A DNA stretch of 33,933 nucleotides, from contig CAZHHV010000001.1 of assembly GCA_964532335.1 (NCBI GenBank), positions 3,327-37,259 of the forward strand. Reading direction: 5' to 3'. Each line of letters starts with the position of its first letter. Position 1 is the first letter of the stretch. The position numbers and the translations under genes were made by a program. Of this stretch, positions 11,052 through 33,892 are shown piece by piece. Under the pieces are notes generated by a model. That model did no database searches. It saw nothing but the letters and a program-made list of their open reading frames with translations, and had not been told where the DNA came from. The stretch comes from an uncultured Nitrospiraceae bacterium. Lineage in GTDB: Bacteria; Nitrospirota; Thermodesulfovibrionia; Thermodesulfovibrionales; UBA1546.

Positions 11052-11068
11052 CACACGCTCCGCTTTTC

Positions 11069-11146
11069 TGTCATTCCAGCAGTTCTTAAGCGGGAATCCA
11101 GAAGATTAATTAAAAGACTGGATTCCGTGTCAAGCACGGAATGACA
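11069..11146. repeat. GTCATTCC...GGAATGACA double-hairpin element, nuoJ-nuoI junction
   Basis: The sequence is tgtcattcc...gggaatccag, then a spacer, then ctggattccGTGtcaagCACggaatgaca. The reverse complement of the right arm is identical (29 nt) to the left arm of the element at 25976. Confidence 0.85.
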
Positions 11147-11186
11147 TTTTTTATTGTCCTTTGTGTCTCTTTGAGATATATGTGTT

Positions 11187-11738: not shown

Positions 11739-11785
11739 GCTGAATAAAATGAATTGCCTCGTAGTAAGTTGCAAGGCAGAAAGTC

Positions 11786-11861
11786 TGTCATTCCGGCTTG
11801 TCCGGAATCTTTTTTTGTTTTTAAAAAGGATTCCCGACGCGCTTTGCTTGCGGGAATGACA
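11786..11861. repeat. GTCATTCC...GGAATGACA element, nuoI-nuoH junction
   Basis: The sequence is tgtcattccGGcttgtCCggaatc, then a T/A-rich centre, then ggattcccgacgcgctttgcttgcgggaatgaca. Confidence 0.8.
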
Positions 11862-11898
11862 ACTGTTAGGTTTTTAATTGTCGAAGCATTAATGTGTT

Positions 11899-12951
11899 TC
11901 ATACCAATATTTTCACTAATCCAGTTACTACTATATTCAATAAAGCTAATGGGATTAATATCTTCCATCCTATAGCCATAAGCTGGTCATACCTGTATCT
12001 CGGCAGTGTTGCCCTGGCCCAATAATAAAAGAACATAAAGGCATAAACCTTTATCAGAAACCACACAATACCGGGCACATTCAGCAAGAAAGGCATTGCA
12101 TCTGAAATAAACTTCGGTATTGTCCACCCTCCCAAAAAACACAATGCCGCTATAGAAGACATTATCAGCATCGCCGTGTATTCGCCGAGGAAAAATAGTG
12201 CGAACCTGAATCCGCTGTATTCCGTAAAATATCCTGCAACAAGCTCGCTTTCCGCCTCCGGCAGATCAAAAGGGAGCCTGTTCGTCTCTGCGAATGCAGC
12301 AACAACAAATATAAAGAAACCTAAAAACTGCGGTATGGCAAACATTCCTGCAGGATATTGATGCTGTGCCCTGACAATATCAGAAAGGTTAAGGGAACCT
12401 GCCATCATCATAACGCCCACAAGGCTAAGGCCCATTGCAATCTCATAACTGATTACCTGTGATGCTGACCTCAGCCCGCCAAGGAATGAATATTTGGAGT
12501 TTGACGCCCACCCTGATAATATAATTCCATAAGCTCCGAGAGAAGACATTGCAAAAAGAAAAAGCAGGCCTATATTTATGTGAGCTATCACAAAGCCGTC
12601 GAAAAACGGAAGCACTGACAATGACGTGAGAGCCGAAACCATGAATATGACAGGCGCAAGATAGAACAACGGCTTATCTGCATTTGCAGGTATAATGTCT
12701 TCTTTAAAGAACAGTTTTATCCCGTCTGCAATCGGCTGTAATAATCCATGCCATCCTACTTCAATGGGGCCAAGCCTTACCTGCATGTGACCTATTACTT
12801 TGCGCTCCCAGTAAGTTGCATAAGCAACATGAAGAAGCGTTATTCCAAGGACAACGGCGATATTTACGAGAATAATCCCAATATCTATCCCAAGCTTAAT
12901 CATAGGGTTCATTGCAGCCGCATTATCTATAAACTGAAGAATGTCGTTCAT
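11899..12951 (-). CDS. nuoH: NADH-quinone oxidoreductase subunit H
   Basis: It is a 350 aa polytopic protein with ND1/NuoH motifs (ERKVIGHMQVRLGP, FAETNRLPFDLPEAESELVAGY). Its start overlaps the nuoG stop (ATGA). Confidence 0.95.
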   Translation of the reverse strand: MNDILQFIDNAAAMNPMIKLGIDIGIILVNIAVVLGITLLHVAYATYWERKVIGHMQVRLGPIEVGWHGLLQPIADGIKLFFKEDIIPANADKPLFYLAPVIFMVSALTSLSVLPFFDGFVIAHINIGLLFLFAMSSLGAYGIILSGWASNSKYSFLGGLRSASQVISYEIAMGLSLVGVMMMAGSLNLSDIVRAQHQYPAGMFAIPQFLGFFIFVVAAFAETNRLPFDLPEAESELVAGYFTEYSGFRFALFFLGEYTAMLIMSSIAALCFLGGWTIPKFISDAMPFLLNVPGIVWFLIKVYAFMFFYYWARATLPRYRYDQLMAIGWKILIPLALLNIVVTGLVKILV

Positions 12952-17168: not shown

Positions 17169-17633
17169 CTATTTATATTTCGCTAATATTTCCTCTATAT
17201 ACTTTTCCGTAAGATTCTCATAAAAATCGTCATTCACAAGCATTGCAGGCGCTGTGCCGCATGCGCCTATGCATTCCATGATAACAAGTGAAAACCTTTT
17301 GTCAGGAGTTGTCCCTCCGGGTTCAAGCCCGTATTTATTCTTAAGAAAGTCTGAAAGCTTCTCTGCGCCGAGTATCATGCATGAGACATTTGTACATAGC
17401 TGTATAACATGCCGTCCCATAGGCTTATGCTTATACATTGCATAAAACGTCCCCACTCCTCTTGCAATCGCCTTTGGAACACCGAGAGCATCTGAAACAG
17501 CTTCATATGCATCAGCTCCGAGATGCCCGAATTCTCTCTGAGCAATATAAAGGGCAGGCAATAGCGCCGCGCTCGCATCAGGATACTTCTGTCGTATCTC
17601 ATTCAGTTCTTTTATGGCTGCTTCGCTAAACAT
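17169..17633 (-). CDS. nuoE: NADH-quinone oxidoreductase subunit E ([2Fe-2S])
   Basis: It has a thioredoxin-like fold with C-x4-C...C-x3-C (LCTNVSC...CIGACGTAP). Confidence 0.93.
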   Translation of the reverse strand: MFSEAAIKELNEIRQKYPDASAALLPALYIAQREFGHLGADAYEAVSDALGVPKAIARGVGTFYAMYKHKPMGRHVIQLCTNVSCMILGAEKLSDFLKNKYGLEPGGTTPDKRFSLVIMECIGACGTAPAMLVNDDFYENLTEKYIEEILAKYK

Positions 17634-20231: not shown

Positions 20232-20603
20232 TCAGTCCCATTTAAATGCCTCCTTTTTCCATGCATAAACATAGCCGACAAAAAGTATCACTATAAAAAT
20301 AACCATCTCAATAAATGCGTATAGTCCAATCCTGTCAAATACAACAGCCCAGGGATAAAGGAAAACAGCCTCAACGTCAAAGATAACAAAGAGCATGGCG
20401 ATAATATAGAATTTAACAGAAAATCTGTATCGCGGCTCTCCGACAGGCAGGTTGCCTGATTCATAAGGCATAAGTTTTTCAGGGTATGGCCTTTTCAGTC
20501 TGAGGAGTTCACCGATTAATAAGGCGCCCATTCCGAAGGCCGTTGCGACCATCAAAAATATAAGAACAGGCAAATAATCCGAAGGCAAATAAGTTCCGGG
20601 CAT
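20232..20603 (-). CDS. nuoA: NADH-quinone oxidoreductase subunit A
   Basis: It is 123 aa with 3 TM segments of the ND3 family (YESGNLPVGEPRYRFSVKFYIIAMLFVIFDVE) and is the first gene of the operon. Confidence 0.93.
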   Translation of the reverse strand: MPGTYLPSDYLPVLIFLMVATAFGMGALLIGELLRLKRPYPEKLMPYESGNLPVGEPRYRFSVKFYIIAMLFVIFDVEAVFLYPWAVVFDRIGLYAFIEMVIFIVILFVGYVYAWKKEAFKWD

Positions 20604-20752: not shown

Positions 20753-21748
20753 ATGATTGTAAAAAAATCTCTGCATTCATTGACCGGGAAGCTTATCATT
20801 GCCATAGGCACTCTTATGGTAGTAGTGAGCGCTGTCTTCTGGTATTTCCTGATACAACGGCAGGAGAAAGAACTTCTTGGCAATGCTGTAAAGTACGGTT
20901 CATCCTTTCTTAACCATGTAAAAGAGAGCACTCGCCATGATATGCTTGCCTTCCAACCACCTCTGACCCAGCAGACTCTTGAAGTATTAGGCTCTGGAGA
21001 GGGAGTCATCAATGTCAGGATATTAGATGCCAAAGGCAGAATTGCTTATTCATCAATAAAAGAAAAGAAAGGAGTCTTGCTTGATAAAAATGAAATGCCA
21101 TGCATCTCATGCCATTCTAAACCTCTGGAAAGAAGAGAGATGCCATTATGGGCTGTTAACAGAGGAAAAGAAGGCTATAGGATTCTGACTATTGTGCGGC
21201 CGATTCATAATGAACCTGCATGCTATACCTCTTCCTGCCATATTCATCCTAAGGAACAGCAGATTCTTGGGTTTGTGAAGGCAGACCTTTCATTATCTAT
21301 TCTGGATGAAACACTGAAAAAACAGAAGATAGCCATTACAGCCTTTCTCATTGGTTTTATCTGTTTATTGTCAGTAGTCCTCTGTACGATTCTATGGAAG
21401 ATTGTGTCTGTCCCTTTAAGTATGCTTACTCATGGCATGAAACGAGTGGCTGCAGGCGAACTCGATTATGTAGTGGAGATAAAAACAAAGGATGAGATTG
21501 GAGATCTTGCAAGGGCGTTTAATGCGATGACCGCAGATCTTTCAATAGCTAAAAAAGAGCTGATTGAATGGGGTACTACGCTCGAAAAAAAGGTTGAGGA
21601 GAAGACTGAAGACATAAGAAGGGCACAATCACAGCTCATCCATTCAGAAAAACTCGCTTCATTGGGAAGGATGGCAGCAGGCGTTGCCCACGAAATAAAC
21701 AGCCCGCTTACAGGCATAGTCACCTTTAGTCATCTCTTGCTTAAGTGA
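20753..21748 (+). CDS. Sensor histidine kinase, N-terminal part (TM1, periplasmic CXXCH/CX4CH domain, TM2, HAMP, first DHp helix with H-box), ending at an in-frame TGA
   Basis: TM segments lie at about residues 12-34 and 192-216. CISCH is at 21101-21115 and CYTSSCH at 21221-21241. A HAMP-like region ([13 protein letters not shown]) and the H-box [17 protein letters not shown] are present. Confidence 0.8.
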
Positions 21749-22333
21749 TTTCCAGAAGGCAGTCAGGAAAAGGAAGACATAAATATAATTATTGAGCAGG
21801 CAAATAGATGCTCTAATATCATAAAGGGGCTTCTTGGATTTGCCAGGGCAACATCAACAGATAAGACCCTTACAAGCATAAATGATGTTGTGCTAAGCGC
21901 TCTAAATATGGTAAGGCATAAGGCAGACTTTTTCAATATAAAGATTGTCTTAAATCTTGATGAGACTCTGCCGCCTGTGATGGCAAATGCATCCCAGCTC
22001 CAACAGGTATTTTTAAATATGATTATAAATGCAGCAGATGTAATGGAAAGCGTAGGGATATTGACCATTGCCACACGAAGGCAGACGAAAGACGGAATGC
22101 CCTTTACAGAGGTAGAATTTAGAGATACAGGACAGGGCATATCTGAGGAGAACATGTCAAAGATATTTGAACCATTCTTTACAACAAAACCAGTCGGGAA
22201 AGGCACAGGTCTTGGTCTTGCTGTAAGCCATGGTATCATTCAGGACCATGGAGGCAAGATACTGGTGAGAAGCAAATTAGGAGAAGGAACAAGTTTCTTT
22301 GTAAGATTTCCAGCATATGAGGGTAAAGTATGA
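21749..22333 (+). CDS. Same histidine kinase, C-terminal part (second DHp helix plus HATPase_c with N, G1, G2 boxes), in the same frame directly after the TGA
   Basis: The frame (mod 3) is the same as that of 20753-21748. The translation continues FPEGSQEKEDINIIIEQANRCSNIIKGLLGFAR..., with N box QVFLNMIINAADV, G1 DTGQGI and G2 GKGTGLGLAVS. There is no credible independent start; the first in-frame start codon is a GTG at 21890. The stop overlaps the next gene (ATGA). Confidence 0.75.
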   Translation, partial: FPEGSQEKEDINIIIEQANRCSNIIKGLLGFARATSTDKTLTSINDVVLSALNMVRHKADFFNIKIVLNLDETLPPVMANASQLQQVFLNMIINAADVMESVGILTIATRRQTKDGMPFTEVEFRDTGQGISEENMSKIFEPFFTTKPVGKGTGLGLAVSHGIIQDHGGKILVRSKLGEGTSFFVRFPAYEGKV

Positions 22334-22707
22334 GCAAAGGAAAGATTCTTGTTATAGATGATGAAGACATAGTTCTTATAAGTTGTAAGAGGGCGCTTGA
22401 GCCTGAAGGTTATGATGTAAAAACAGTCAAAAGCGGAGTGGAAGGCTTGAAGACTGCTGAGAATGAGGATTTCGATATTGTGATGACAGACCTGAAGATG
22501 CCTGACGTGGATGGCATAGAGGTTTTACGGATTATCAAAGAAAGAAAACCTGCCGTTGAAGTTGTTATCATGACAGGCTATCAAACTGTAGAGACAGCTG
22601 TTAAGGCTATAAAGCTCGGCGCATTTGATTATATTGAAAAACCGTTCACCCCTGAACAGATAATCTCTGTGATAAAGAATGCCATTGCTCATGAATCAAA
22701 AATGTAA
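22330..22707 (+). CDS. Single-domain response regulator (CheY-like receiver)
   Basis: It has DD at the N-terminus, the phospho-acceptor motif MTDLKMPDVDG, MTGY and EKPFTPE, and no output domain. It is translationally coupled to the kinase. Confidence 0.9.
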   Translation: MSKGKILVIDDEDIVLISCKRALEPEGYDVKTVKSGVEGLKTAENEDFDIVMTDLKMPDVDGIEVLRIIKERKPAVEVVIMTGYQTVETAVKAIKLGAFDYIEKPFTPEQIISVIKNAIAHESKM

Positions 22708-22832: not shown

Positions 22833-23606
22833 ATGGGGGAAAAAGGGAAAATATTGGTGCTGGATGATGACCCTGTTGTTACTCTGAGCTGTAAAAGGAT
22901 TTTAGGTGCAGAAGGTTACAACATCATAACAGTAGACAGAGGCGAAGACGCAATTAAAAAGGTCTCCAATGAGGAATTTGACCTCCTGATATCTGATATA
23001 AGACTGCCTGATGTTAGCGGAATTACTGTTTTAAAAGAATCAAAGATTATCCAGCCAAAACTTGACGTTGTCATAATTACAGGTTATCCCACATTAGAGG
23101 ATGCCAAGGAGTCTGTGAGGCTCGGCGCGCTCGAGTTTATCGAAAAGCCCTTTACTCCCGAGTTTATGGTAAATGTTGCCAAAAAAGTATTTGACAGCAG
23201 GGGATGGATATTAAGGAAGGCGTTTATAGACGATTTCAGAAATGATATCGTTTCACTGAGGGATACTGAAAACCCGGTGATATTTTATAAGGAAGGAACA
23301 TGGGCAAGACCGCTGAAAAATGAAATATGGGAGATCGGGTGCGATGTAAGATACTGGCTGTTAGCAGGCCAACTCACATATATTGAGCTTTCTGAAAAGA
23401 TTGATATGCTTATAGCAGGGGAGCCGTTTGGCAAAATCTTATCAAGCACAGGACAGACCGAGAACCTTATTTCACCAATAACAGGCAGGGTTAAAGAGAT
23501 CAACATTAATGCTAATACTGCTATGAGCGCACTTATAAGGGATAACCTCAGTGAGGGGTGGTTGCTCTGGCTTGCGAGGATTGAACTGATAACAACATTG
23601 CCTTAA
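22833..23606 (+). CDS. Response-regulator receiver fused to a glycine-cleavage-H-like (lipoyl-fold) domain lacking the lipoyl lysine
   Basis: The REC domain has DDD, ISDIRLPDVSG (D55), ITGY and EKPFTPE. The C-terminal roughly 105 aa, FYKEGTWARP..EIGCDVRYWLLAGQLTYIEL...ISPITGRVKEIN...SEGWLLWLA, align by eye to GcvH (YtkeHeW..vGit..aq..lGdivfveLp...sPvsGevvevN...GWl.ki). The SD is AGGAGG. Confidence 0.8.
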   Translation: MGEKGKILVLDDDPVVTLSCKRILGAEGYNIITVDRGEDAIKKVSNEEFDLLISDIRLPDVSGITVLKESKIIQPKLDVVIITGYPTLEDAKESVRLGALEFIEKPFTPEFMVNVAKKVFDSRGWILRKAFIDDFRNDIVSLRDTENPVIFYKEGTWARPLKNEIWEIGCDVRYWLLAGQLTYIELSEKIDMLIAGEPFGKILSSTGQTENLISPITGRVKEININANTAMSALIRDNLSEGWLLWLARIELITTLP

Positions 23607-23663: not shown

Positions 23664-24497
23664 ATGTTTAAAATCTTAAAAAAGGAAGAGCTATCAGAAA
23701 GCATAACCCTATTTGATATTGATGCGAAAGATATTGCAAAAAAGGCAAAGCCAGGCAATTTTATTGTTCTTAAGATTCATGAGGAGGGAGAGAGGATACC
23801 TTTAACTATTGCTGATTTTGATAGGGAAAAAGGAACCATAACTACTGTATTCCAGAAGGTTGGAAAGTCAACCTATCACCTTGGAGCATTAAATGAAGGT
23901 GATTTTATAACTGATGTTATAGGCCCTCTCGGTATTCCTTCCCATATAGAAAATTTTGGAAAGGTTGTCTGTATAGGTGGTGGAGTTGGAATTGCGCCTA
24001 TTTACCCGATAACAAAGGCATTAAAAGAGGCAGGTAATATAATAATTTCTATCATAGGCGCAAGGACAAAGTCACTCCTTTTCTGGGAAGAAAAAATGCG
24101 CAAGGTATCAGATGAACTAATTATTACGACAGATGATGGCTCTTACGGCAGAAAGGCAGTGGTAACTATTCCATTGGAAGAACTTCTGAAGGAGGGCAAT
24201 ATAAATTTAGTAGTCGCTATCGGCCCTGCTATTATGATGAAATTTGCCTGTAAGACAACAGAAAAATACAATGTAAAAACTATAGTTAGTTTAAATTCAA
24301 TCATGATTGATGCAACAGGGATGTGCGGCGGCTGTAGAGTAGGGGTAGGAGGGGAGACAAAGTTTTGCTGTGTTGACGGCCCTGAATTTGATGGACATAA
24401 GGTTGATTTTGATCTGCTTATGGAAAGACAGAAGATGTATCTTGATGAGGAAAGGTTAGCCATGCAAAGGTATAGAGAAAAAATGGGGGTGAAATGA
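23664..24497 (+). CDS. nfnA: NADH-dependent reduced ferredoxin:NADP+ oxidoreductase subunit A (SudB/PyrK-like FAD/[2Fe-2S] protein)
   Basis: It is near-collinear with the Thermotoga NfnA sequence as I recall it (MFKIL.K.EL...KPGNF..L.IHE.GERIPLT.AD.D.EKGTIT...GMCG.CRV.VGGE.KF.CVDGPEFD.H.VD). The SD is AAGGAG. Confidence 0.85.
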   Translation: MFKILKKEELSESITLFDIDAKDIAKKAKPGNFIVLKIHEEGERIPLTIADFDREKGTITTVFQKVGKSTYHLGALNEGDFITDVIGPLGIPSHIENFGKVVCIGGGVGIAPIYPITKALKEAGNIIISIIGARTKSLLFWEEKMRKVSDELIITTDDGSYGRKAVVTIPLEELLKEGNINLVVAIGPAIMMKFACKTTEKYNVKTIVSLNSIMIDATGMCGGCRVGVGGETKFCCVDGPEFDGHKVDFDLLMERQKMYLDEERLAMQRYREKMGVK

Positions 24498-25945
24498 GCA
24501 TGGAGGAAAAAGAGGAGAAAAAAGAGGAAAAAAAACCAAAAAAGAGAGTAAAGATGAGGGAACAGGACCCTCTGGTGAGGGCGAGGAATTTTGATGAGGT
24601 TCCTTATGGATACACCCCGGATGATGCAGTTGAGGAGGCATCAAGATGCCTGCAGTGCAAGAAACCTGCCTGTAGAGAAGGGTGCCCTGTAGAGATAGAT
24701 ATACCGCCATTTATACAGCTTATCACCAAGCATGATTTCATTGGCGCTGCAAGAAATATCCGTGAAAAAAACAGCCTTCCTGCTGTTTGTGGAAGGGTAT
24801 GTCCACAGGAGATTCAATGTGAAGCCTTATGTATCTTAGGGAAAAAGGCAGAGTCTGTTGCCATAGGCAACCTTGAGCGATTTGCAGCAGACTATGACAG
24901 GGTTCATGGAAAGTTTGAGATGCCTGAGATGGCAGAGCCAAATGGCAGAAAGGTTGCTATTATCGGCTCAGGTCCTGCCGGATTGACAGCAGCAGGCGAC
25001 CTCAGAAAAAAGGGTTATGAGGTTGCTGTTTTTGAGGCGCTCCATGAACTGGGTGGTGTTCTTGTCTATGGCATCCCTGAGTTCAGACTTCCCAAGAAGA
25101 TTGTCAAGGCTGAAATATCATATCTTGAAAGGATAGGGGTAAGGTTTCAAACTAATGCAGTGATTGGAAAGCTCTATACAGTTGATGAACTATTGAACAG
25201 CCACGGATATGATGCCTGCTATATTGGAATAGGCGCAGGGTTGCCTATGTTTATGGGAATACCAGGAGAAAACCTAAACGGTATTTACTCTGCGAATGAA
25301 TTTTTAACAAGGGCAAATCTAATGAAGGCATATCTTTTCCCTGAGTATGATACACCGATAAAGAGAGGCAAAAAGGTTGCTGTATTCGGCGGCGGCAATG
25401 TCGCTATGGATGCTGCAAGGGTGGCCCTCAGACTTGGTGCAGATAAGGTCTATCTTATATACAGGCGTTCTGAGGCTGAGATGCCGGCAAGAAAGGCAGA
25501 AGTTCATCATGCACATGAGGAGGGAATAGAATTCTTGCTATTAACAAATCCAACAAGATTTATTGATGACGGCAAGGGGAATGTCTGTGGGGTTGAATGT
25601 ATAAAGATGGAATTAGGAGAGCCTGACGAATCCGGCAGAAGGAAACCGATTCCTATTAAAGGCAGTGAATTTCAGATTGAGATAGATGTTGCAATACCTG
25701 CACTCGGAACAAGGGCAAATCCAATTTTAACAAAAACCGTGCCTGATTTAAAATTAAACAAGAGGGGGTATATTGTAGCTGAAGAGGAAACAGGCATGAC
25801 CTCAAAACCAGGCGTCTTTGCAGGCGGAGATATAGTTACAGGCTCTGCAACGGTTATCCTGGCTATGGGCGCAGGAAGAAAGGCAGGAAGGGCGATTAAT
25901 GAATATATAAAATGGAAATACTGGAACTTTAGCATGAGTAAATGA
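24494..25945 (+). CDS. nfnB: NADH-dependent reduced ferredoxin:NADP+ oxidoreductase subunit B (GltD/SudA-like)
   Basis: The N-terminal motif NFDEVPYGYTPDDAVEEASRCLQCKKPAC..GCPV is present, along with a 2x[4Fe-4S] region and the dinucleotide folds KVAIIGSGPAGL and VAVFGGGNVAMD. It overlaps the nfnA stop (ATGA). Confidence 0.85.
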   Translation: MSMEEKEEKKEEKKPKKRVKMREQDPLVRARNFDEVPYGYTPDDAVEEASRCLQCKKPACREGCPVEIDIPPFIQLITKHDFIGAARNIREKNSLPAVCGRVCPQEIQCEALCILGKKAESVAIGNLERFAADYDRVHGKFEMPEMAEPNGRKVAIIGSGPAGLTAAGDLRKKGYEVAVFEALHELGGVLVYGIPEFRLPKKIVKAEISYLERIGVRFQTNAVIGKLYTVDELLNSHGYDACYIGIGAGLPMFMGIPGENLNGIYSANEFLTRANLMKAYLFPEYDTPIKRGKKVAVFGGGNVAMDAARVALRLGADKVYLIYRRSEAEMPARKAEVHHAHEEGIEFLLLTNPTRFIDDGKGNVCGVECIKMELGEPDESGRRKPIPIKGSEFQIEIDVAIPALGTRANPILTKTVPDLKLNKRGYIVAEEETGMTSKPGVFAGGDIVTGSATVILAMGAGRKAGRAINEYIKWKYWNFSMSK

Positions 25946-25975: not shown

Positions 25976-26049
25976 TGTCATTCCGTGCTTGACACGGAAT
26001 CCAGTTCCACAATATATCCCTCTGGATTCCCGCTTTCGCGGGAATGACA
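25976..26049. repeat. GTCATTCC...GGAATGACA double-hairpin element downstream of nfnB (nested inside a perfect 12 bp outer IR, 25952-25963 / 26069-26080)
   Basis: The sequence is tgtcattccGTGcttgaCACggaatccag, then a spacer, then ctggattccCGCtttcGCGggaatgaca. The outer pair is caactttcgcag / ctgcgaaagttg. Confidence 0.85.
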
Positions 26050-26119
26050 GAAGGCGTTTTTAAAAGTGCTGCGAAAGTTGACTTATTGACTCAATTAAAA
26101 GAAGGGAGGAGTTATTTTT

Positions 26120-26989
26120 ATGGCAAATGCTACCAAAATTCTTGTTGTGGACGATGAAGCTATAGTAATAAGAAGCGCTGAAAGGGTTCTTAAGGCTGAA
26201 GGTTATAATGTTGAAGGGGTTCTTAGTGGAAGAGAGGCTATGCTCAAGATGGAACAGAGCAGTTATGACCTTGTCTTAACAGACCTTAAGATGCCAGAGG
26301 TGGATGGAATCACATTGATAAGATGGATGCGGAAATTCCGACCTTCTATCGGTATTGTAATCATTACAGGCTATCCATCACAGGAGACAATTAAAGAAGC
26401 CCTTGAATTAGGCATTATTGATTATGTCCCAAAACCCTTTACACCGGCAGTTCTGACAGATGTAACACACAGGGCATTAGAATGGCTGAAAGGAAAGGCA
26501 TACATTGAAGAAAAGCCTAAAGAGGAATTCCCTCCTTCTATGCTCAATGAACTGGACAGAGTCATAAAAGAACATAAAAATAAAGCCGGCAGCCTCATAC
26601 CTGTGCTTCAGCGGGCTCAGGAGATTGTAGGCTACCTTCCATCGTTTATACAGAAGCGAGTTGCAAAGGGACTGAATATTCCTGCAGCAGAGGTGCATAG
26701 CGTTGTCTCATTCTATTCATTCTTTACTATGAAACCCAGAGGGGAACACCTCATCAGGCTCTGTCTCGGGACTGCCTGTTATGCAAAAAAATCAGAGGCA
26801 ATTCTGGAGAAATTCATGTCAGAATTAGGTGTAAATGTTGAGGAGGTTACAGAGGATAAAAAGTTTTCACTTGAGACTGTCCGATGCCTTGGCGCATGCG
26901 GTCTCGCACCAGTGGCAGTAGTAGACGAAGATACCTATGGTTTACTGCATCCAAAGAAGGTAAGAGAGGTTATTAATGTATATAGATAA
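26120..26989 (+). CDS. Response-regulator receiver fused to a NuoE/HydC-like thioredoxin-fold [2Fe-2S] subunit
   Basis: The REC domain spans residues 1-125 (DD11-12, D55 in LTDLKMPEVDG, ITGY, K105 in PKPFTP). Residues 140-289 are NuoE-like (LIPVLQRAQE..GYLP) with C215-x4-C220-x35-C256-x3-C260. The SD is GGGAGGA. Confidence 0.85.
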   Translation: MANATKILVVDDEAIVIRSAERVLKAEGYNVEGVLSGREAMLKMEQSSYDLVLTDLKMPEVDGITLIRWMRKFRPSIGIVIITGYPSQETIKEALELGIIDYVPKPFTPAVLTDVTHRALEWLKGKAYIEEKPKEEFPPSMLNELDRVIKEHKNKAGSLIPVLQRAQEIVGYLPSFIQKRVAKGLNIPAAEVHSVVSFYSFFTMKPRGEHLIRLCLGTACYAKKSEAILEKFMSELGVNVEEVTEDKKFSLETVRCLGACGLAPVAVVDEDTYGLLHPKKVREVINVYR

Positions 26990-27003: not shown

Positions 27004-27387
27004 ATGCCAAGACTAACTATAGATGATTTAAGAAAGATTAAAGAACAACATAAGGCAACCTTTACCTTAAGGGAAGGCGGCTACAGGGCAAAAGTTACCG
27101 TCCATATGGGGACATGCGGCATAGCTGCCGGCGCAAGAAATATAATGACCGTTTTAATGGACGAAATAGCACAGGTCAAGGTTGAAGATGTGATTGTTAC
27201 TACATCAGGGTGTGCGGGACTTTGCGCCCGTGAACCCATGGCCACAGTAGAGATAGTAAATAATCCTCCGGTCAGATACATTGACCTGACAGAGGAAAAG
27301 ATTAAAGAGATATTTAAGGAACATATTATGGGTGGTAATGCAGTAGAAAAATATGCATTGGCTATTGGAAGTGAGACGACATATTAA
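27004..27387 (+). CDS. HndB-like small thioredoxin-fold [2Fe-2S] ferredoxin
   Basis: It is 127 aa with VTVHMGTCGIAAGA...TSGCAGLCAREP, the pattern seen in HndB / HydB-N-terminal-type domains. The SD is AGGAGG. Confidence 0.8.
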   Translation: MPRLTIDDLRKIKEQHKATFTLREGGYRAKVTVHMGTCGIAAGARNIMTVLMDEIAQVKVEDVIVTTSGCAGLCAREPMATVEIVNNPPVRYIDLTEEKIKEIFKEHIMGGNAVEKYALAIGSETTY

Positions 27388-27399
27388 CCCTTCCTCTTT

Positions 27400-27420
27400 C
27401 CTCCCCTTACTAAGGGGAGG
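27400..27420. repeat. CCTCCCCTTA-C-TAAGGGGAGG palindrome between the HndB-like and NuoF-GltD genes
   Basis: It is a perfect 10+1+10 palindrome embedded in a C/T-rich then G/A-rich context (27388-27440). It has the same CCCCTT...AAGGGG core as the element inside the gene at 3721-3762. Confidence 0.7.
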
Positions 27421-27446
27421 ATGGGTGGGGTAGAGGAGAGAAATTG

Positions 27447-30400
27447 ATGGAAAAGTTTCGTGCAAATGTGATGCTCTGTGCAGGGACAGGTTGTATTGCG
27501 AGCGGAACTATGAAGGTTAAGTCCGCCCTCGTGGAAGAATTGAGAAAGAGGGGGCTTGAAAATGAGATACAGGTTATCATGACAGGCTGTAATGGCTTCT
27601 GTGCACAAGGACCTATTGTGTCTGTCTACCCTGATAATATCTTTTACCAGGCATTAAAGGTAGAGGATGTCCCTCATCTGGTAGAAGAACATTTCTTAAA
27701 GGGCAGACCTGTAAAGAGATTGATGTATCAGGAACCAGACAAGAAAATAACTGTTCCAGCTATGGGTGAGATACCTTTCTTTAAACATCAGGTGCTTCGT
27801 GTCCTGCGAAATAAAGGACTCATTGATCCTGAAAAGATTGAAGAATACATTGCCAGGGATGGTTATCTTGCTGCTGCAAAGGCGCTCACTGAGATGACTC
27901 CTGAAGAAATAATAAAAGTTGTAAAAGACTCGGGTGTAAGGGGCAGAGGCGGCGCAGGGTTTCCGACGGGTTTAAAATGGGAATTTGCCTCAAAGTCAAA
28001 GGCAGACCAGAAATTTATGCTCTGCAATGGCGATGAGGGGGACCCTGGTGCGTTCATGGACAGGTCTGTTATGGAGTCTGACCCGCATTCAGTAATTGAA
28101 GGTATGATTATAGGCGCTAGTGCCATAGGCGCAAGCAAAGGCGTTATCTATGTAAGGGCGGAATATCCTCTTGCTGTAAAACGTCTTCAACTTGCTATTG
28201 ATCAGTGTTATGATGCAGGACTGCTCGGGAAAAACATCCTTGGCTCAGATTTTAATTTTGACCTCAGCATATACCTTGGTGCAGGCGCCTTTGTCTGTGG
28301 CGAAGAAACAGCCCTCATGCGTTCTATTGAAGGAAAACGCGGGATGCCAATACCAAGGCCGCCCTTCCCTGCACAAAAAGGGCTCTGGGATAAACCTTCA
28401 GTCCTGAATAATGTTGAAACCTTAGCCCAGATTGCTCCGATAATATTAAATGGCGCTGAATGGTATAAAAGCCTCGGGACCGAGAAAAGCACAGGAACAA
28501 AGGTATTTGCCCTTACAGGCGCTATAAGCAATGTAGGTCTGGTTGAAGTTCCTATGGGAATTCCCCTGAGGACAATTATATATGATATCGGAGGCGGGAT
28601 AAGAAAGGGGAAATTCAAGGCTGTACAGCTTGGAGGTCCGTCAGGCGGCTGTATTCCTGAAAGCCTTCTCGACACCCCTGTCACGTATGAAGATATTGTA
28701 GCAACAGGCGCCATTGTCGGCTCTGGCGGCATGGTCGTTCTGGATGACAGCAACTGCATGGTCAGTTTAGCTAGATTCTTCCTCGGCTTTACAACAGAGG
28801 AATCCTGCGGAAAGTGTCCTCCGTGCAGGGTAGGGACAAAGATTTTATTAGATATGCTTACGGATATCACAGAAGGCAGGGGAAAAGAGACTGATGTCGA
28901 GACGCTAGAGGACCTCAGTAGAGATATTATTGCCACATCTCTATGCGGCCTTGGACAGACAGCCCCGAATCCTATCCTTACTACAATTAAATATTTCAAA
29001 GATGAGTATGAAACTCATATCAAATATAAGAGATGTGAGGCAATGGTCTGCAAGGAGATAATATCATCTCCCTGTCAGCATACCTGCCCTATTGGCACAG
29101 AAGTGCCTGTCTATGCAGCCTTAATCGCCCAAAGACGCTTTGATGAGGCAGTTCAGGTTATTAGAAAAGACAATCCACTGGCAAGTGTCTGCGGCCGTGT
29201 CTGTACTCACCCCTGCGAATCCAATTGCAAATCAGGAGAGGCGGGAAAACCCCTTGCAGTAAGGGCACTGAAGCGATTTGCTACTGATTACGGGCTGCAA
29301 ACAGGCTACAAATTACCGATTAAACGCAAAGAGCCAAAAAATAAAAAGGTTGCCATTATAGGCTCAGGGCCAGGAGGGCTCACAGCAGGTTGCTTCCTTG
29401 CCATAGAAGGTTATGATGTTACAATCTTTGAGGCAAAGTCTGTTTTAGGTGGTATGCTGAGAGTAGCCATACCTACATATCGTTTGCCAAGAGAGCTGCT
29501 GGATGCTGATATTGACGCCATTAAAGAGGCAGGGGTTAAATTCCAAACAAATACAGCATTGGGGAAAGAAATCTCTATTAACAGCCTTTTCAATGATGGG
29601 TATGAAGCTATTTTTATCTCAGTCGGCGCCCATAAGCCGATGGACCTGGGCATCCCTGGTGAGGATAGCGAAGGGGTCATAGGCTCTTTGAAATTTCTTG
29701 AGGCAGTAAATCTGGGCAAAGATATAAAGGTTGGCAAAAGGATTGGTATTATCGGTGGGGGGAATGCTGCAGTTGACGCTGCCAGGGCTGCACATCGCCT
29801 TCCAAATACAGAGAAGGTTACACTTATCTACAGAAGGACAAGGGCAGAGATGCCGGCATTTAAAGAGGAAGTGGATGCTGCAATTGAAGAGGGTATTGAT
29901 ATACAGTTCCTGAGCGCACCAACAAGGGTATTAACACAAAATGGAAAACTTGCCGGCATTGAGGCTATCCGTATGGAATTAGGAGAACCAGATGCAAGCG
30001 GAAGAAGAAAACCTGTCCCTATTAGCGGTTCTGAATTTATCATAGAATTAGATACATTAATAAGGGCAATCGGGGAAGCTCCTGATATTACATTCCTTGG
30101 AGGTCAGGGACTTGAGATTTCTAAAAGGAATACCCTTGTAGTTGACCCTGAGACTTTAGCCACTAAAAGAAAAGGGGTCTTTGCCGGTGGAGATGCGGTG
30201 ACCGGTCCAAAAACCGTTATACATGCTATTGCAGCCGGTAAGTTAGCCGCTGAATCCATTGATAAATATCTCAGGGGGGAAAGCATAGAAAGGGAATACA
30301 ATGTAACCCGACCATCCATGTATATTGAACCGGTTGAGCTGACCGATGAGGAAATAGAGAGCGCTGCCCGGCCTGAGATGTCCCATCTGCCTATAAAAGA

Positions 30401-30587
30401 TAGGGTTAAGAACTTTAAAGAGGTGGAATTAGGTTTCACTGAAGAGACGGCAGTTAAAGAGGCAAGGAGATGCCTAAGATGTGAATTAGGAACGATGGAA
30501 GGCACACAAGCAATGCAGGAAATGCGAGAAAAGAAAAAAATCGAAAAAGAAAAATTACAGAAGGCAGGAGGAGTCAAAAATGATTGA
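27447..30587 (+). CDS. Fusion protein: N-terminal [2Fe-2S] domain plus NuoF/HydB-like FMN/NADH module plus GltD/NfnB-like Fe-S/FAD/NAD(P)H module
   Basis: Counting from the TTG at 27444: CAGTGC...GCNGFCAQGP lies in residues 10-57. GRGGAGFPTGLKW, CNGDEGDPGAF and ESCGKCPPCRVG lie in residues 165-462. From about residue 530 the GltD-like region begins, with CQHTCPIG...VCGRVCTHPCESNC, KVAIIGSGPGGL, IGIIGGGNAAVD and GVFAGGDAV. The ATG at 27447 has the SD GAGGAGAG upstream. Confidence 0.85.
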   Translation: MEKFRANVMLCAGTGCIASGTMKVKSALVEELRKRGLENEIQVIMTGCNGFCAQGPIVSVYPDNIFYQALKVEDVPHLVEEHFLKGRPVKRLMYQEPDKKITVPAMGEIPFFKHQVLRVLRNKGLIDPEKIEEYIARDGYLAAAKALTEMTPEEIIKVVKDSGVRGRGGAGFPTGLKWEFASKSKADQKFMLCNGDEGDPGAFMDRSVMESDPHSVIEGMIIGASAIGASKGVIYVRAEYPLAVKRLQLAIDQCYDAGLLGKNILGSDFNFDLSIYLGAGAFVCGEETALMRSIEGKRGMPIPRPPFPAQKGLWDKPSVLNNVETLAQIAPIILNGAEWYKSLGTEKSTGTKVFALTGAISNVGLVEVPMGIPLRTIIYDIGGGIRKGKFKAVQLGGPSGGCIPESLLDTPVTYEDIVATGAIVGSGGMVVLDDSNCMVSLARFFLGFTTEESCGKCPPCRVGTKILLDMLTDITEGRGKETDVETLEDLSRDIIATSLCGLGQTAPNPILTTIKYFKDEYETHIKYKRCEAMVCKEIISSPCQHTCPIGTEVPVYAALIAQRRFDEAVQVIRKDNPLASVCGRVCTHPCESNCKSGEAGKPLAVRALKRFATDYGLQTGYKLPIKRKEPKNKKVAIIGSGPGGLTAGCFLAIEGYDVTIFEAKSVLGGMLRVAIPTYRLPRELLDADIDAIKEAGVKFQTNTALGKEISINSLFNDGYEAIFISVGAHKPMDLGIPGEDSEGVIGSLKFLEAVNLGKDIKVGKRIGIIGGGNAAVDAARAAHRLPNTEKVTLIYRRTRAEMPAFKEEVDAAIEEGIDIQFLSAPTRVLTQNGKLAGIEAIRMELGEPDASGRRKPVPISGSEFIIELDTLIRAIGEAPDITFLGGQGLEISKRNTLVVDPETLATKRKGVFAGGDAVTGPKTVIHAIAAGKLAAESIDKYLRGESIEREYNVTRPSMYIEPVELTDEEIESAARPEMSHLPIKDRVKNFKEVELGFTEETAVKEARRCLRCELGTMEGTQAMQEMREKKKIEKEKLQKAGGVKND

Positions 30588-33042
30588 GCTTACAATCAAT
30601 GACAAAAAAATAACTGCAGAGGAAGGCTCCACAATCCTCCAAACCGCAACAAAAAATGGTATTAAGATACCAAATCTATGCTTTGACAAAAGACTCAGGC
30701 CTTATGGCGGATGCAGGCTTTGTGTTGTTGAGGTAGAGAAACAGCCGAGGCTTTTTGCTGCATGCTCAACCCCTGTTGCTCCTGGAATGGTTGTTAAAAC
30801 CGATACTCCTAAACTCAGAAAAGCCCGCCAGACAGTGCTCGAACTTCTTCTTGTGCATCATCCGCTGGACTGCCCAATATGCGATAAGGCAGGCGAATGC
30901 GACCTTCAGGACCTCGCATATGAATTTGGCAAACCTGAAGGACGTTTCATAAGACACAGAAAAGAAACCCCGCCTGATGTCAGAGGACCACTAATAGAGC
31001 TTACTTCAAACAGATGCATTCTATGTGGCAAATGTGTACGAATCTGTAGTGAATATCAAGGAAGAGGGGCATTGGGACTGATAGGAAGGGGATTTCCTAC
31101 TGTTGTTCAGCCCGCATTCGGTGAAATCCTTGAATGCGACTACTGCGGCCAGTGTATTGATATATGCCCGACAGGCGCGCTTTTGAGTAAGCCGTTCAAG
31201 TTTCAGGCACGTGCATGGTTTCTCGATGAAAAAGACACAATCTGTCCTTTCTGCGGATGCGGCTGCACTCTTACTTTGGGTATAAGAGAAGGGAAGATAT
31301 TAAGATCAAGAGGCCAGGAAGACAATGGAAGGAGCGAAGGCAACCTGTGCGGCAGGGGCAGGTTTGGATTTGATTACATATACAATGAGAGCCGTCTTAA
31401 AACGCCTTTGATAAGAAAAGAAGGTTCACTGGTTCCTGCAACATGGGATGAGGCATTATCATATATAAGCGATAGCCTGAATTTTATTATCAATTCTTAC
31501 GGAAAAACATCAGTAGGCGCTCTCGGCTCTCACAGATGTACGAATGAAGACAACTTTATGCTGAAAAAGTTCATGATGAACGTTGTTGGTTCAAACAACT
31601 TTGACTCTGCTGCCGCATTCGGATATTCAAAGGTTCAGCAGGCTCTCGATAAGGCATTCGGATTAAAGACCCATCCGATTAACCTGAAATCACCATTGGG
31701 CAAGGAAGTTATTCTGATAATTGAATCGGATATCAGCATTACACATCCTGTATTCGGACTTAATATCCTTCAGGCAAAAAGAGAAGGCTCAAGGCTTATT
31801 GTCGCTGATTCAAGGGAGACAAAACTCACAAGGCATAGTACGACTCAACTAAAAATGAGACAGGGCGCTTCTGTTGCGCTGCTCAATGGAATAATGAAGA
31901 TAATAATAGATAAGGGTCTTTTCAACAGGGAGATAGTTTCCAAGACCCCGGGGTTTTCAGAATTCGAAAAGGGCCTTAATGATTACATCTCTGAAGATGT
32001 CTCAAGGATTACAGGGATTTCCGTAGAGGAACTCGTATCTGCTGCAGAGACTATTGCAAGGGCTAAAAGCAGAATGATCTCATTCACAATCAATTCGACA
32101 GAGAACACAAAAGGAGCAGATCTGGTTTTTGCAGCTTCGAATCTTGTAATCCTCTTAGGCGATGAGACAGATACATTGCAGATCCCTGCTGAATATGCAA
32201 ACACATTTGGAGCTTACAAAATGGGAATAAGGCCGGATGCAGATGGAAAGAATCTATTTGATATGCTTTATGAATCGGGCTCACTCCATGCCCTTTATAT
32301 AATGGGCGAGGATCCTGTTTCAGCATTTCCTTACAATTCAAAGATTATAAGGACACTTAAATCGCTCGAACTGCTTGTTGTTCAGGATATTGCCCTGACA
32401 GAGACAGCCAAGCTTGCGCATGTTGTGCTTCCTGCATCAAGCTGGGCAGAGAAAGACGGCACATTCATTAATGCCGAGGGGGTTGCGCAGACATTGAAAA
32501 AGGCAATAGACGCCCCCGGCCAATCACTGCCAGACTGGCAGATCCTGAGAAATCTCTCGTTATCAATGGGGACTGATATTGGGATAAGGAGTATAGAAGA
32601 CATCTCAAGGGAGATAAACTCGTCAATCGTCAATCGTCAATCGTCAATCGTCAATCGTCAATCGTTTAATCCTGTGTTATATACACGCGGAGAAGAGCCT
32701 GATACAGAATATCCATTGTCACTTGTCACAAGAGATATCCTTCAGCATTCAGGAACGATGACAACACGCTCAAAGGCGCTTGACCTTGTTGTTCCCGAAC
32801 CTTTTCTTGAGATTAATGATGAGGATGCCAAAAAATTCGGCATATCTGACAACAGCCATGTTAAGGTTTCATCAAGGAGAGGCACAGTATATCTGAAGGC
32901 AAAGGTTTCTGATGTTATACCTTCTGGAACTGTTTTCACTTCAGTTCATTTTCCTCACGGCCGTGTTAATGCGCTCACAAATCTCTCAGAAAATGGCACA
33001 GCAACCCCAGACGCTGTAAGAGTAGAAAGGGTTATAATATAA
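30580..33042 (+). CDS. NuoG-like / formate-dehydrogenase-alpha-like Fe-S molybdopterin-fold subunit lacking the catalytic Cys/Sec-His
   Basis: It has an N-terminal [2Fe-2S] region (CRLCVVEV), HPLDCPICDKAGEC, 2x[4Fe-4S] motifs, and the motif CPFCGCGCTL...LCGRGRFG. NNFDSAAAFGYS occupies the position of NNvD.CARvUH in FDH. The SD is AGGAGG and the start overlaps the upstream stop. Confidence 0.85.
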   Translation: MIELTINDKKITAEEGSTILQTATKNGIKIPNLCFDKRLRPYGGCRLCVVEVEKQPRLFAACSTPVAPGMVVKTDTPKLRKARQTVLELLLVHHPLDCPICDKAGECDLQDLAYEFGKPEGRFIRHRKETPPDVRGPLIELTSNRCILCGKCVRICSEYQGRGALGLIGRGFPTVVQPAFGEILECDYCGQCIDICPTGALLSKPFKFQARAWFLDEKDTICPFCGCGCTLTLGIREGKILRSRGQEDNGRSEGNLCGRGRFGFDYIYNESRLKTPLIRKEGSLVPATWDEALSYISDSLNFIINSYGKTSVGALGSHRCTNEDNFMLKKFMMNVVGSNNFDSAAAFGYSKVQQALDKAFGLKTHPINLKSPLGKEVILIIESDISITHPVFGLNILQAKREGSRLIVADSRETKLTRHSTTQLKMRQGASVALLNGIMKIIIDKGLFNREIVSKTPGFSEFEKGLNDYISEDVSRITGISVEELVSAAETIARAKSRMISFTINSTENTKGADLVFAASNLVILLGDETDTLQIPAEYANTFGAYKMGIRPDADGKNLFDMLYESGSLHALYIMGEDPVSAFPYNSKIIRTLKSLELLVVQDIALTETAKLAHVVLPASSWAEKDGTFINAEGVAQTLKKAIDAPGQSLPDWQILRNLSLSMGTDIGIRSIEDISREINSSIVNRQSSIVNRQSFNPVLYTRGEEPDTEYPLSLVTRDILQHSGTMTTRSKALDLVVPEPFLEINDEDAKKFGISDNSHVKVSSRRGTVYLKAKVSDVIPSGTVFTSVHFPHGRVNALTNLSENGTATPDAVRVERVII
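32621..32665 (+). repeat. Perfect heptanucleotide tandem repeat (CGTCAAT)x6 plus CGT inside the NuoG-like gene
   Basis: Read directly from the sequence: six exact 7 nt units followed by cgt. It translates as SSIVNRQSSIVNRQS, a 7 aa periodicity arising from 21 nt. Confidence 0.95.
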
Positions 33043-33062: not shown

Positions 33063-33401
33063 ATGACATTAAACGAAATCAAAAGAATACTCAACGCAGT
33101 GGCGCTCTCAAAGATAGAAGATATGAATCTCAATATTGTAAGGGCTTACTGTGCCGATCTCATGAGTGATGTGCTTGCATTTTCTATAACAAATTCCCTT
33201 TTGATAACACATTTAACAAATACACAGGTAATTCGCACTGCTGAGATTGCGGATGTCAAAACAATAGTATTTGTTCAGAGTAAAAGGCCTGATATAGAAA
33301 CAATCGCATTAGCAGACACAAAGAATATCCCTCTGCTTGTAACCGATCTTTCGATGCATGAGACATGCGGGAAACTTTACGAGAAAGGACTAAGGAGTTA
33401 G
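33063..33401 (+). CDS. DRTGG-domain small regulatory protein
   Basis: It is 112 aa. DLMSDVLAF...LLITHLTNTQVIRTAEIADVKTIVFVQSKRP...NIPLLVTDLSMHETCGKLY resembles the DRTGG domain as found in HydABC-type gene clusters (from memory). Confidence 0.65.
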   Translation: MTLNEIKRILNAVALSKIEDMNLNIVRAYCADLMSDVLAFSITNSLLITHLTNTQVIRTAEIADVKTIVFVQSKRPDIETIALADTKNIPLLVTDLSMHETCGKLYEKGLRS

Positions 33402-33415
33402 CTTAATACTAAAAA

Positions 33416-33892
33416 ATGAGTAACAAGGTCATTGAAGGAGTTTTTTTTCTTACGGGCAAGGATTTCTCTAATGCGGGCGCTGCCTCAAGCAATTTGAAGG
33501 GAATATTAGAAGGCATGAGTGTTCAGCCAGATATTATAAGAAGGGCTGCTATAGCAGCATTTGAGGCAGAGATGAACACGATTATATACTCTGTGGCAGG
33601 AATGATGAATTATTGCATAACTCCTGAAATAATACGAGTTGTCCTTAAGGATGTCGGTCAGGGCATCGAAAATATTGAACTTGCCATGAAAGAGGGATAT
33701 TCGACAGCCCCGGACTACATAAGAGAAATGGGGTTTGGCTCAGGTATGGGCCTTCCGAATATCAAAAGGAATGCGGATGAGATGAACATCAATTCCACGG
33801 TCGGTGAAGGCACAACGCTTGAATTTATTATATACCTGAACAAGAAAGAAGAATTAAAAGGAGCGCGCTATGAAACTGCAGGAAATTGTTAA
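33416..33892 (+). CDS. Small HATPase_c protein (RsbW/SpoIIAB-like anti-sigma kinase / histidine-kinase-like ATPase)
   Basis: N-box-like EAEMN, a G1-like DVGQGI and a G2-like GFGSGMGLPNIKRNAD...GTTLEF are present. There is no DHp or H-box. Confidence 0.7.
   Translation: MSNKVIEGVFFLTGKDFSNAGAASSNLKGILEGMSVQPDIIRRAAIAAFEAEMNTIIYSVAGMMNYCITPEIIRVVLKDVGQGIENIELAMKEGYSTAPDYIREMGFGSGMGLPNIKRNADEMNINSTVGEGTTLEFIIYLNKKEELKGARYETAGNC

Follow-up and report, generated by a model that had tools for sequence, protein, structure and literature searches.

Flavin-based electron-bifurcating enzymes of the HydABC/Bfu type set the balance of reduced nicotinamide adenine dinucleotide (NADH), ferredoxin and H2 in anaerobes. 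Bacterial response regulators are known to carry outputs that do not bind DNA, as in CheY, CheB, PleD/WspR and RpfG-type proteins. This report focuses on a gene that joins the two, a receiver domain (REC) fused to a NuoE/HydC(BfuC)-like [2Fe-2S] subunit. The gene lies at 26120..26989 on the + strand of a 33,933-nucleotide stretch of DNA (the window) from an uncultured Nitrospiraceae bacterium (assembly GCA_964532335.1, contig CAZHHV010000001.1). The best matches to residues 137-289 of its product are the HydC/BfuC subunits of HydABC (A. woodii, T. kivui, T. maritima), NiFe-HydABCSL (A. mobile) and NfnABC/StnABC, at 42-45% identity. The solved or described BfuC subunits lack an N-terminal receiver, and the best structural alignments to them span ~150 columns. 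Signalling genes have been linked to these enzymes before: hisK and hydD are part of the operon and remain outside the holoenzyme (Schut et al., PMC9304861). The signalling genes of HydABC-type operons (hisK/hydD in A. mobile and T. maritima; HydS with kinases and phosphatases) encode separate proteins, whereas here the receiver is built covalently into the enzyme, which marks out that enzyme as its target. It is considered somewhat probable that the gene encodes a two-component response regulator whose output is a BfuC-type subunit, such that phosphorylation would directly control a Bfu-like NAD(P)H/ferredoxin oxidoreductase; its functional steps are ones that we infer.

The gene was delimited from its open reading frame, its translation and matches to the Pfam families PF00072 and PF01257, and its 289 codons are followed by a stop codon that is included in the coordinates. 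A Shine-Dalgarno sequence (GGGAGG, 26104..26109, + strand) can be read 10 nucleotides 5' of the ATG. The receiver, residues 6-125 (26135..26494), has a (beta-alpha)5 fold with D11, D12, D55 (26282-26284), T83 inside the motif ITGY, Y102, and K105-P106, with K105 inside PKPF. It is followed by a flexible linker of about 13 residues (126-138; 26495..26533) that is charged, poorly conserved and variable in length. The NuoE/BfuC half consists of an N-terminal helical domain (residues 139-205; 26534..26734) and a thioredoxin-like [2Fe-2S] domain (residues 206-289; 26735..26986). The latter bears C215 (26762-26764), C220 (26777-26779), C256 (26885-26887) and C260 (26897-26899), with the spacing C-x4-C-x35-C-x3-C. 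These are the same four ligands as in HydC/BfuC, and they are invariant in the two alignments of fusion relatives (A1 and A2). In Pfam searches, Response_reg matched residues 7-114 with 98.2 bits (cutoff 30.2, E 4e-28, 108 of 111 profile positions) and 2Fe-2S_thioredx matched residues 146-288 with 162.6 bits (cutoff 24.8, E 7e-48, profile positions 2-144 of 145). An earlier note on this DNA had named the same receiver residues apart from Y102 and a complete NuoE-like domain with this cysteine spacing; both were confirmed, and the domain search that it proposed placed both families far above their cutoffs and the architecture in Nitrospirota, Omnitrophota and Desulfobacterota-like metagenome-assembled genomes (MAGs).

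The complex I NuoE of the same window (17169-17633, minus strand) is a protein of 154 amino acids with PF01257 as its sole domain. As the earlier note had pointed out, it has no receiver extension. Its alignment with residues 137-289 of the fusion is free of gaps and gives 31% identity; Pfam family and cluster spacing are the same. The fusion scored below the NCBIfam equivalog cutoffs, with 125.7 bits against 141 for the best NuoE model and 154.2 against 224 for HoxE. The fusion gene is also not part of the nuo operon, where a separate nuoE is present, and its partner F subunit carries domains absent from complex I NuoF. An AlphaFold2 model of the fusion, built from a 44-sequence alignment, had a mean predicted local distance difference test score (pLDDT) of 86.4 and a predicted template modelling score (pTM) of 0.44. 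In this model the receiver forms five strand-helix pairs over residues 6-125 (pLDDT ~90), linker residues 126-134 are disordered (pLDDT <50), and residues 139-288 form a NuoE-type helical domain, with helices at 139-198, and a thioredoxin-like domain. The receiver is thus predicted to be tethered flexibly to the NuoE-type domain. When the model was compared with the PDB by Foldseek, only the C-terminal half was aligned. The best matches were BfuC/HydC/NfnC/StnA subunits of bifurcating enzymes (TM-score 0.75-0.81), the helical domain among them matching HydC/NfnC/StnA, while those to complex I NuoE were lower (~0.5-0.7). No solved chain with both a receiver and a NuoE domain was found in Foldseek and sequence searches of the PDB.

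The fusion has been found in many other genomes. An identical protein is also encoded in sequencing reads of one run that were assembled independently (Logan SRR12113399). Among genomes sampled at one per species, 527 relatives were detected, and the best 80 of them were examined. All 80 were from Nitrospirota/Thermodesulfovibrionia MAGs and matched residues ~1-288 in a single segment at 56-81% identity. Both Pfam domains are combined in hundreds of 90%-identity clusters of the protein database, under NCBI names such as 'NAD(P)H-dependent oxidoreductase subunit E' or 'response regulator' and JGI names such as 'NuoE/CheY-like'. An exhaustive search added more full-length fusions among 50%-identity representatives, down to 31-38% identity. 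The sources of these distant fusions include MAGs labelled 'Deltaproteobacteria' and 'Pseudomonadota', with smaller groups in Desulfobacterota-like MAGs. When a distant member was used as the query, a second large family came to light, with at least 120 clusters from Candidatus Omnitrophota and its relatives. In a rough neighbor-joining tree of NuoE domains, calculated without support values, fused sequences formed at least four groups, with unfused sequences between them, a pattern that would be compatible with repeated gain or loss of the receiver fusion. Three relatives outside the window (P0121, P0122 and P0130; 251-578 amino acids) consist of tandem REC-NuoE units or of a receiver joined to the helical half of NuoE only, and they have lost the cluster cysteines and have different C-termini.

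The receiver of the fusion is closest to NtrC/FixJ/NosR-type receivers, and a kinase is encoded alongside, as is the case for response regulators. In an alignment of 229 fusions, position 11 was Asp in 216 and Glu in 12, position 12 was Asp in 226, position 55 was Asp in 218 and Glu in 11, position 83 was Thr in 217 and Ser in 11, position 102 was Tyr in 209 and Phe in 15, and position 105 was Lys in all 229. The catalytic positions, five in all, and the aromatic switch are therefore kept in 91-100% of the fusions. Among the 80 species-level orthologues, the beta4-alpha4 segment ITGYPSQ and the beta5 segment DYVPKPF are almost invariant. The two NuoE subdomains had mean pairwise identities of 0.725 and 0.695 among these orthologues, the receiver 0.724 and the linker 0.441, and region 118-146 ranged from 27 to 33 residues in length. 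The receiver is thus under purifying constraint and as conserved as the Fe-S domain. The earlier note had allowed that the receiver might prove degenerate once aligned; on the strength of its canonical residues and of the conservation in both sets, degeneracy was rejected for the family of the window, and it holds for some side clades.

The neighbouring genes encode the other parts of a candidate enzyme. In nearly all loci the gene directly downstream of REC-NuoE encodes a small thioredoxin-like, ferredoxin-type protein (HydD-like; 27004..27387, + strand, 127 amino acids in the window) with the motif H-x3-C...C-x3-C, a weak PF01257 match and an NCBIfam 2Fe-2S ferredoxin match. Next is a BfuB/HydB-like flavoprotein fused to a GltD/NfnB-like module (27444..30587, + strand, 1047 amino acids), assigned from Pfam, NCBIfam and its cysteine map. 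Its domains are, in order, an N-terminal four-cysteine thioredoxin-like domain, a flavin mononucleotide (FMN)/NADH domain, a [4Fe-4S] domain, a GltD di-cluster domain and a flavin adenine dinucleotide (FAD)/NAD(P)H domain. A C-x4-C pair lies between the NuoF core and the complete GltD/NfnB-like module. The protein is 44% identical to the complex I NuoF of the window and carries the NuoF-type [4Fe-4S] cysteines (455/458/461/501), together with N-terminal cysteines (12/17/49/53) that are absent from that NuoF. It has Bfu-type extra cluster motifs, and the C-terminal ferredoxin-type 2x[4Fe-4S] domain (B3/B4) of BfuB is here replaced by the GltD-type di-cluster domain (Fer4_20).

The earlier note had referred to a NuoF-GltD partner. 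Such a gene is indeed adjacent in the window, but it is not the typical partner of the family, since among 66 Nitrospirota loci the GltD fusion was found only in the window and in L002. The BfuB of a typical member, L082, has 632 amino acids and two CxxCxxCxxxCP motifs. A similar flavoprotein-GltD fusion of 1020 amino acids is encoded in the distant locus L087. The GltD-like module belongs to the A subunit in the Nfn/Stn complexes of solved structure, whereas in the window it is fused to BfuB. The GltD fusion suggests NADPH as a substrate of the window enzyme.

The last subunit gene encodes a NuoG/BfuA-like Fe-S protein with a molybdopterin-type domain that lacks the active site (30580..33042, + strand, 820 amino acids; Pfam and NCBIfam). 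It has the Pfam domains Fer2_4, NADH-G_4Fe-4S_3 and Fer4_Nqo3, scores 473.2 bits against the NuoG family TIGR01973 (cutoff 470), and is 34% identical end to end to the NuoG of the window, which shows the same catalytic loss. The earlier description of a large 'molybdopterin' subunit did not hold in this respect: the protein is NuoG-like and without the active site of a formate dehydrogenase. Its best PDB sequence match is FdsA of the formate dehydrogenase FdsABG (R. capsulatus, C. necator), whose gamma, beta and alpha subunits are homologous to NuoE, NuoF and NuoG. FdsG has no receiver, and the catalytic Cys-His of FdsA corresponds to Gly-Tyr here, with 'CARVCHSPT' of R. capsulatus aligned to 'SAAAFGYSKV'. 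A formate dehydrogenase was rejected since the catalytic Cys/Sec-His is replaced in this way and the score against the Fdh-alpha family TIGR01591 was 472 bits, with a cutoff of 666. The lack of a catalytic site also sets this BfuA apart from the Bfu-family enzymes compared.

Membership of the Bfu family has been defined by an invariant BfuBC core and extra clusters in BfuB (Schut et al., PMC9304861). The Bfu features found here are the C1 [2Fe-2S] site of BfuC in the fusion, the FMN/NADH, SLBB, B1 and N-terminal thioredoxin-like sites of BfuB, and the N-terminal [2Fe-2S] and [4Fe-4S] domains of BfuA. A typical enzyme of the fusion family, such as that of L082, qualifies as Bfu on sequence features.

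A putative cognate sensor histidine kinase is encoded upstream (20753..22335, + strand, 527 codons), with a transmembrane segment, a periplasmic domain, a second transmembrane segment, and HAMP, HisKA and HATPase domains. The periplasmic domain comprises ~155 amino acids (residues ~36-190, 20753-21330). A CXXCH motif, whose inner residues vary, occurs in this domain in 47 of 48 orthologues, and a CX4CH motif in 48/48. These motifs are the signature of covalently bound c-type haem; the domain is therefore suggested to be a c-type haem redox sensor, and a redox input seems likely. In the window, the kinase gene, intact in other respects, is interrupted by an in-frame TGA (21746-21748, codon 332) just past the H-box. 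The corresponding codon specifies Lys or Arg (AAA/AAG/CGN/AGR) in ~50 orthologues and is never Cys or TGA. Selenocysteine was rejected on this basis, and the TGA is best read as a nonsense mutation or a sequencing error.

Two further receivers are encoded between the kinase and the fusion. One is a single-domain, CheY-like receiver (22330..22707, + strand, 125 amino acids, Pfam 112.8 bits) that is 44% identical to the receiver of the fusion. The other is fused to a GcvH-like, lipoyl-carrier-type domain (22833..23606, + strand, 257 amino acids, PF00072 and PF01597). In most relatives REC-GcvH is the gene directly upstream of REC-NuoE, and the two are also paired in the distant L087. The three cassette receivers are 39-47% identical, have similar alpha1 helices and are the sole receivers in the window. 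No DNA-binding domain or regulator was found among the cassette proteins of the window by Pfam and annotation of the cassette genes. An NfnA-like gene (23664-24497, + strand, Pfam) and an NfnB/GltD-like gene (24494-25945, + strand, Pfam) are inserted between REC-GcvH and REC-NuoE, a position in which this pair was seen in 6/72 loci. Downstream of the NuoG-like gene are a DRTGG-like protein gene (33063-33401, + strand; Pfam, NCBIfam) and a gene for a SpoIIAB-like GHKL ATPase/kinase (33416-33892, + strand), both of which belong to the accessory signalling genes of the neighbourhood.

The gene order is shared among Nitrospirota. It begins with nuoA, encoded on the minus strand (20232..20603 in the window), which opens the complex I operon of 14 genes, is divergent from the kinase gene and is orthologous to the PF00507 gene of L082. 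The sensor kinase and the single receiver follow and then, in some loci, the genes for DRTGG, GHKL ATPase, DRTGG, PHP and GHKL ATPase. The 3' part consists of receiver-GcvH-like, REC-NuoE, thioredoxin-like, BfuB and NuoG-like genes, followed in other loci by DRTGG and GHKL ATPase genes. The DRTGG/GHKL ATPase/PHP genes thus have two alternative positions, one 3' of the NuoG-like gene and one between the genes for the single receiver and for REC-GcvH, and locus L013 (6430-8960) gave clear DRTGG/HATPase/PHP matches. Counting only loci with enough flanking sequence, BfuB was present in 65/66, the NuoG-like gene in 52/55, REC-GcvH in 66/75 (directly adjoining in 60), an upstream sensor kinase in 44/56, a single receiver in 39/56, and DRTGG with an ATPase within 10 kilobases in 33/46. 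DRTGG, small GHKL ATPase, PHP and HydS-like genes are shared between fusion neighbourhoods and HydABC-type signalling sets.

The association recurs in other lineages, with kinases next to the fusion in five further lineage contexts, and distant members of the fusion family have been found inside genuine HydABC [FeFe]-hydrogenase operons. Three Omnitrophota-type loci encode Rex, a Cache-kinase, REC-HydC, (a small open reading frame,) HydB, HydA with H-cluster domains, a single receiver and HydE/F/G, and no DNA-binding response regulator was found in their two-component part. Locus L085 encodes a Cache-kinase, an NtrC-type regulator, a double receiver, REC-NuoE, and HydB-like and HydA-like proteins. 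Locus L086 encodes RpoN, a HydS-like fusion of an [FeFe]-hydrogenase domain to a kinase, an NtrC-type regulator, REC-NuoE, a HydB-like protein and a fusion of a receiver to a protein like the NuoG N-terminus. The kinase of L086 (4539-6485) combines Fe_hyd_lg_C, FeS, HisKA and HATPase domains. Since the last gene (10862-11905) joins a receiver to a NuoG-N-terminal-like Fe-S subunit, two subunits of one enzyme carry receivers in this locus. Locus L087 encodes REC-GcvH, REC-NuoE, DRTGG, a GHKL ATPase, a HydS-like protein, PHP, a second GHKL ATPase, NuoF-GltD and a molybdopterin-type subunit, and presents the architecture of the window in a different lineage. Locus L088 encodes REC-NuoE, a NuoG-like protein, NfnA, NfnB, a HydB-like protein and a Cache-kinase.

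The earlier note had proposed that a phospho-switch placed next to the flavin subunit could control docking or electron entry. This has become considerably more plausible, on indirect evidence, because the receiver residues are conserved, a kinase and sister receivers are co-encoded, no DNA-binding regulator is present in the cassette, and the fusion occurs in HydABC operons. The proposed enzyme would be a soluble complex of REC-BfuC, the small thioredoxin-like protein, BfuB(-GltD) and the NuoG-like BfuA. A membrane kinase, probably redox-sensing, would phosphorylate D55 of the fusion and the two sister receivers. The phosphorylated receiver, tethered by the linker to the helical domain that anchors to the flavoprotein, would shift its contacts via the conserved alpha4-beta5-alpha5 face, and might dimerise or dock on, or release, neighbouring mobile cluster domains. 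The enzyme would be switched on or off, or its coupling or assembly changed, at the protein level without a transcription factor. From its tethered position the receiver could clamp or release the moving domains, block the site of NAD(H) or of ferredoxin, or link protomers by dimerising when phosphorylated. In NfnABC, the N-terminal domain of BfuC has been shown to anchor to the flavoprotein while the C-terminal cluster domain swings between FMN and the ferredoxin-reducing clusters (PMC11829005). The first ~21 residues of BfuC could not be traced, and the BC cores are peripheral in the oligomer (PMC11829005). With a disordered BfuC N-terminus and a peripheral BC core, an N-terminal tethered regulator beside the moving parts is sterically plausible (PMC11829005). 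We infer the phosphotransfer from the cassette kinase, the nature of the signal and all effects on activity.

The output of the fusion differs from those of the CheY, CheB, PleD/WspR and RpfG-type regulators, as it is an electron-transfer subunit for a multi-subunit Fe-S flavoenzyme and not a stand-alone catalytic or binding domain. An Fe-S electron-transfer subunit would add an unusual output class to the response-regulator repertoire. The architecture itself is already visible in databases, where automated pipelines label both domains. Searches of the available full-text literature, which omits most subscription-journal papers, turned up no account of a receiver joined to NuoE/HydC/BfuC, and the survey of Bfu enzymes, the review of multimeric hydrogenases, the phylogenomic study of complex I and the papers on the Thermodesulfovibrio and Ca. 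Sulfobium genomes do not mention the fusion either. Relative to this searchable literature, an enzyme of the Bfu/HydABC type that carries its own two-component receiver is new; there, the regulation of HydABC/Bfu enzymes is discussed only as transcriptional (e.g., by Rex) or in terms of unassigned accessory kinases. The occurrence of the fusion in hundreds of uncultured species of several phyla, mostly with a kinase nearby, points to direct two-component control of an enzyme, for which it names both the target protein and the residue (D55). The fusion may also give a handle on conformational gating at the mobile BfuC cluster domain, as placed by structural studies. If the proposal is true, it suggests that sensor kinases switch NADH-linked, bifurcating-type redox enzymes directly at the protein level, a form of regulation for which the searchable literature yielded no description.

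Several observations weigh against direct control by phosphorylation. The AlphaFold2 model has no preferred REC/NuoE interface or fixed orientation, as reflected in its pTM. The relatives found are all from uncultured organisms; no cultured carrier was seen among the matches listed, in which all named sources are MAGs. The BfuA of the Nitrospirota enzyme has no catalytic site. Signalling in the window may be broken by the TGA in the kinase gene, unless this is a sequencing error. A paralogous REC-NuoE clade of Thermodesulfovibrionales (P0126, 46 members) carries Glu where the acceptor Asp would be ('ITELVML'), and its receiver may act as a constitutive mimic or be a pseudo-receiver; P0127, P0159 and P0177 have degenerate receiver sites. 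As these related clades have non-phosphorylatable receivers, phosphorylation is not universally required.

An alternative direction of information flow can be considered. The Fe-S domain could serve as a signal input that reports the NAD(P)H/ferredoxin redox state and tunes the phosphate on the receiver, making the fusion a redox-tuned sink or connector to a two-component pathway. The targets of such a connector would be the single-domain receiver, REC-GcvH or NtrC-type regulators, and the role would be compatible with that of a subunit. Further receivers are always present in the cassettes as possible competitors for the kinase (the single receiver and REC-GcvH in the window, the single receiver in Omnitrophota, and the NtrC-type regulators in L085 and L086). 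By its title, one paper (PMC7078487) concerns an Fe-S-binding receiver domain that exerts feedback control on a two-component system. The Nitrospirota cassette, however, has no transcriptional output through which feedback could act, and the NuoE domain is complete as a subunit and followed by the BfuB and BfuA genes at the frequencies given above. Because no second, unfused HydC-like gene occurs in the neighbourhoods shown, the fusion must also serve as the structural C subunit. Signal input is regarded as unlikely.

A second alternative involves complex I. REC-NuoE, BfuB and the NuoG-like protein could form a second N-module that replaces NuoEFG on complex I, as a switchable 'Nuo-Bfu' in which phosphorylation picks the module. 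Such an arrangement may coexist with control of a soluble Bfu-like enzyme. The trio is a divergent paralogue of the NuoE/F/G of the window (31%, 44% and 34% identity), and the G-like protein is alignable end to end, lacks the Cys-His pair and passes the NuoG cutoff of NCBIfam. The divergent nuoA lies 104-600 nucleotides from the start of the kinase gene in 40/51 loci, and Nuo-Bfu complexes have been predicted in Nitrospirae (Schut et al., PMC9304861). Yet the nuo operon of the window has its own nuoEFG, and the clusters that harbour distant fusions are of the soluble HydABC or Nfn type and lack neighbouring nuo genes. The GltD fusion of the window, with the nfnAB genes beside it, points to a soluble enzyme linked to NADPH. 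The replacement of NuoEFG is rated as distinctly improbable, and an equally small chance is given to the form of it in which the module would compete with NuoEFG for the membrane arm and a haem-sensing periplasmic kinase, by phosphorylating the E-like subunit, would switch complex I between NADH-only and NADH plus ferredoxin (Bfu-type) input.

Very little probability is given to a third alternative, a phosphorylation-independent pseudo-receiver whose fold would be only structural, acting as a dimerisation or assembly domain. The Glu acceptor of the P0126 clade, the degenerate sites of P0127, P0159 and P0177 and the interrupted kinase gene of the window favour such a role, which is opposed by the retention of the catalytic and switch positions in the window's own family and by the presence of a kinase gene in most loci as well as in unrelated lineages. 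Finally, the joining of two separate genes by an assembly or frameshift artefact has practically no chance of being correct: the reading frame is unbroken, with no stop, gap or N, including the junction at 26490-26540 where the earlier note had placed a possible fault, and the copy in Logan SRR12113399, the 80 single-segment genomes and the hundreds of two-domain clusters refute it, such that the fusion is real.

Direct control of a Bfu-like enzyme remains the preferred reading of the locus, in which a few minor sequence features were also seen. Neither of two perfect inverted repeats, at 25996-26030 and 27399-27421, is followed by a T-run, and a simple scan found no terminators on the + strand. 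The first, GGAATCCAG/CTGGATTCC (25996-26030), lies upstream of REC-NuoE, and the second, TCCTCCCCTTA/TAAGGGGAGGA (27399-27421), lies between the thioredoxin-like and flavoprotein genes. The NuoG-like gene contains a perfect tandem repeat, (TCGTCAA) x 6.6 (32620-32665, + strand), which encodes SSIVNRQSSIVNRQS and is absent from all 90 related loci compared. Its period is not a multiple of 3, so that a change in copy number would shift the reading frame, and the repeat might act as a slipped-strand switch or reflect a quirk of the assembly.

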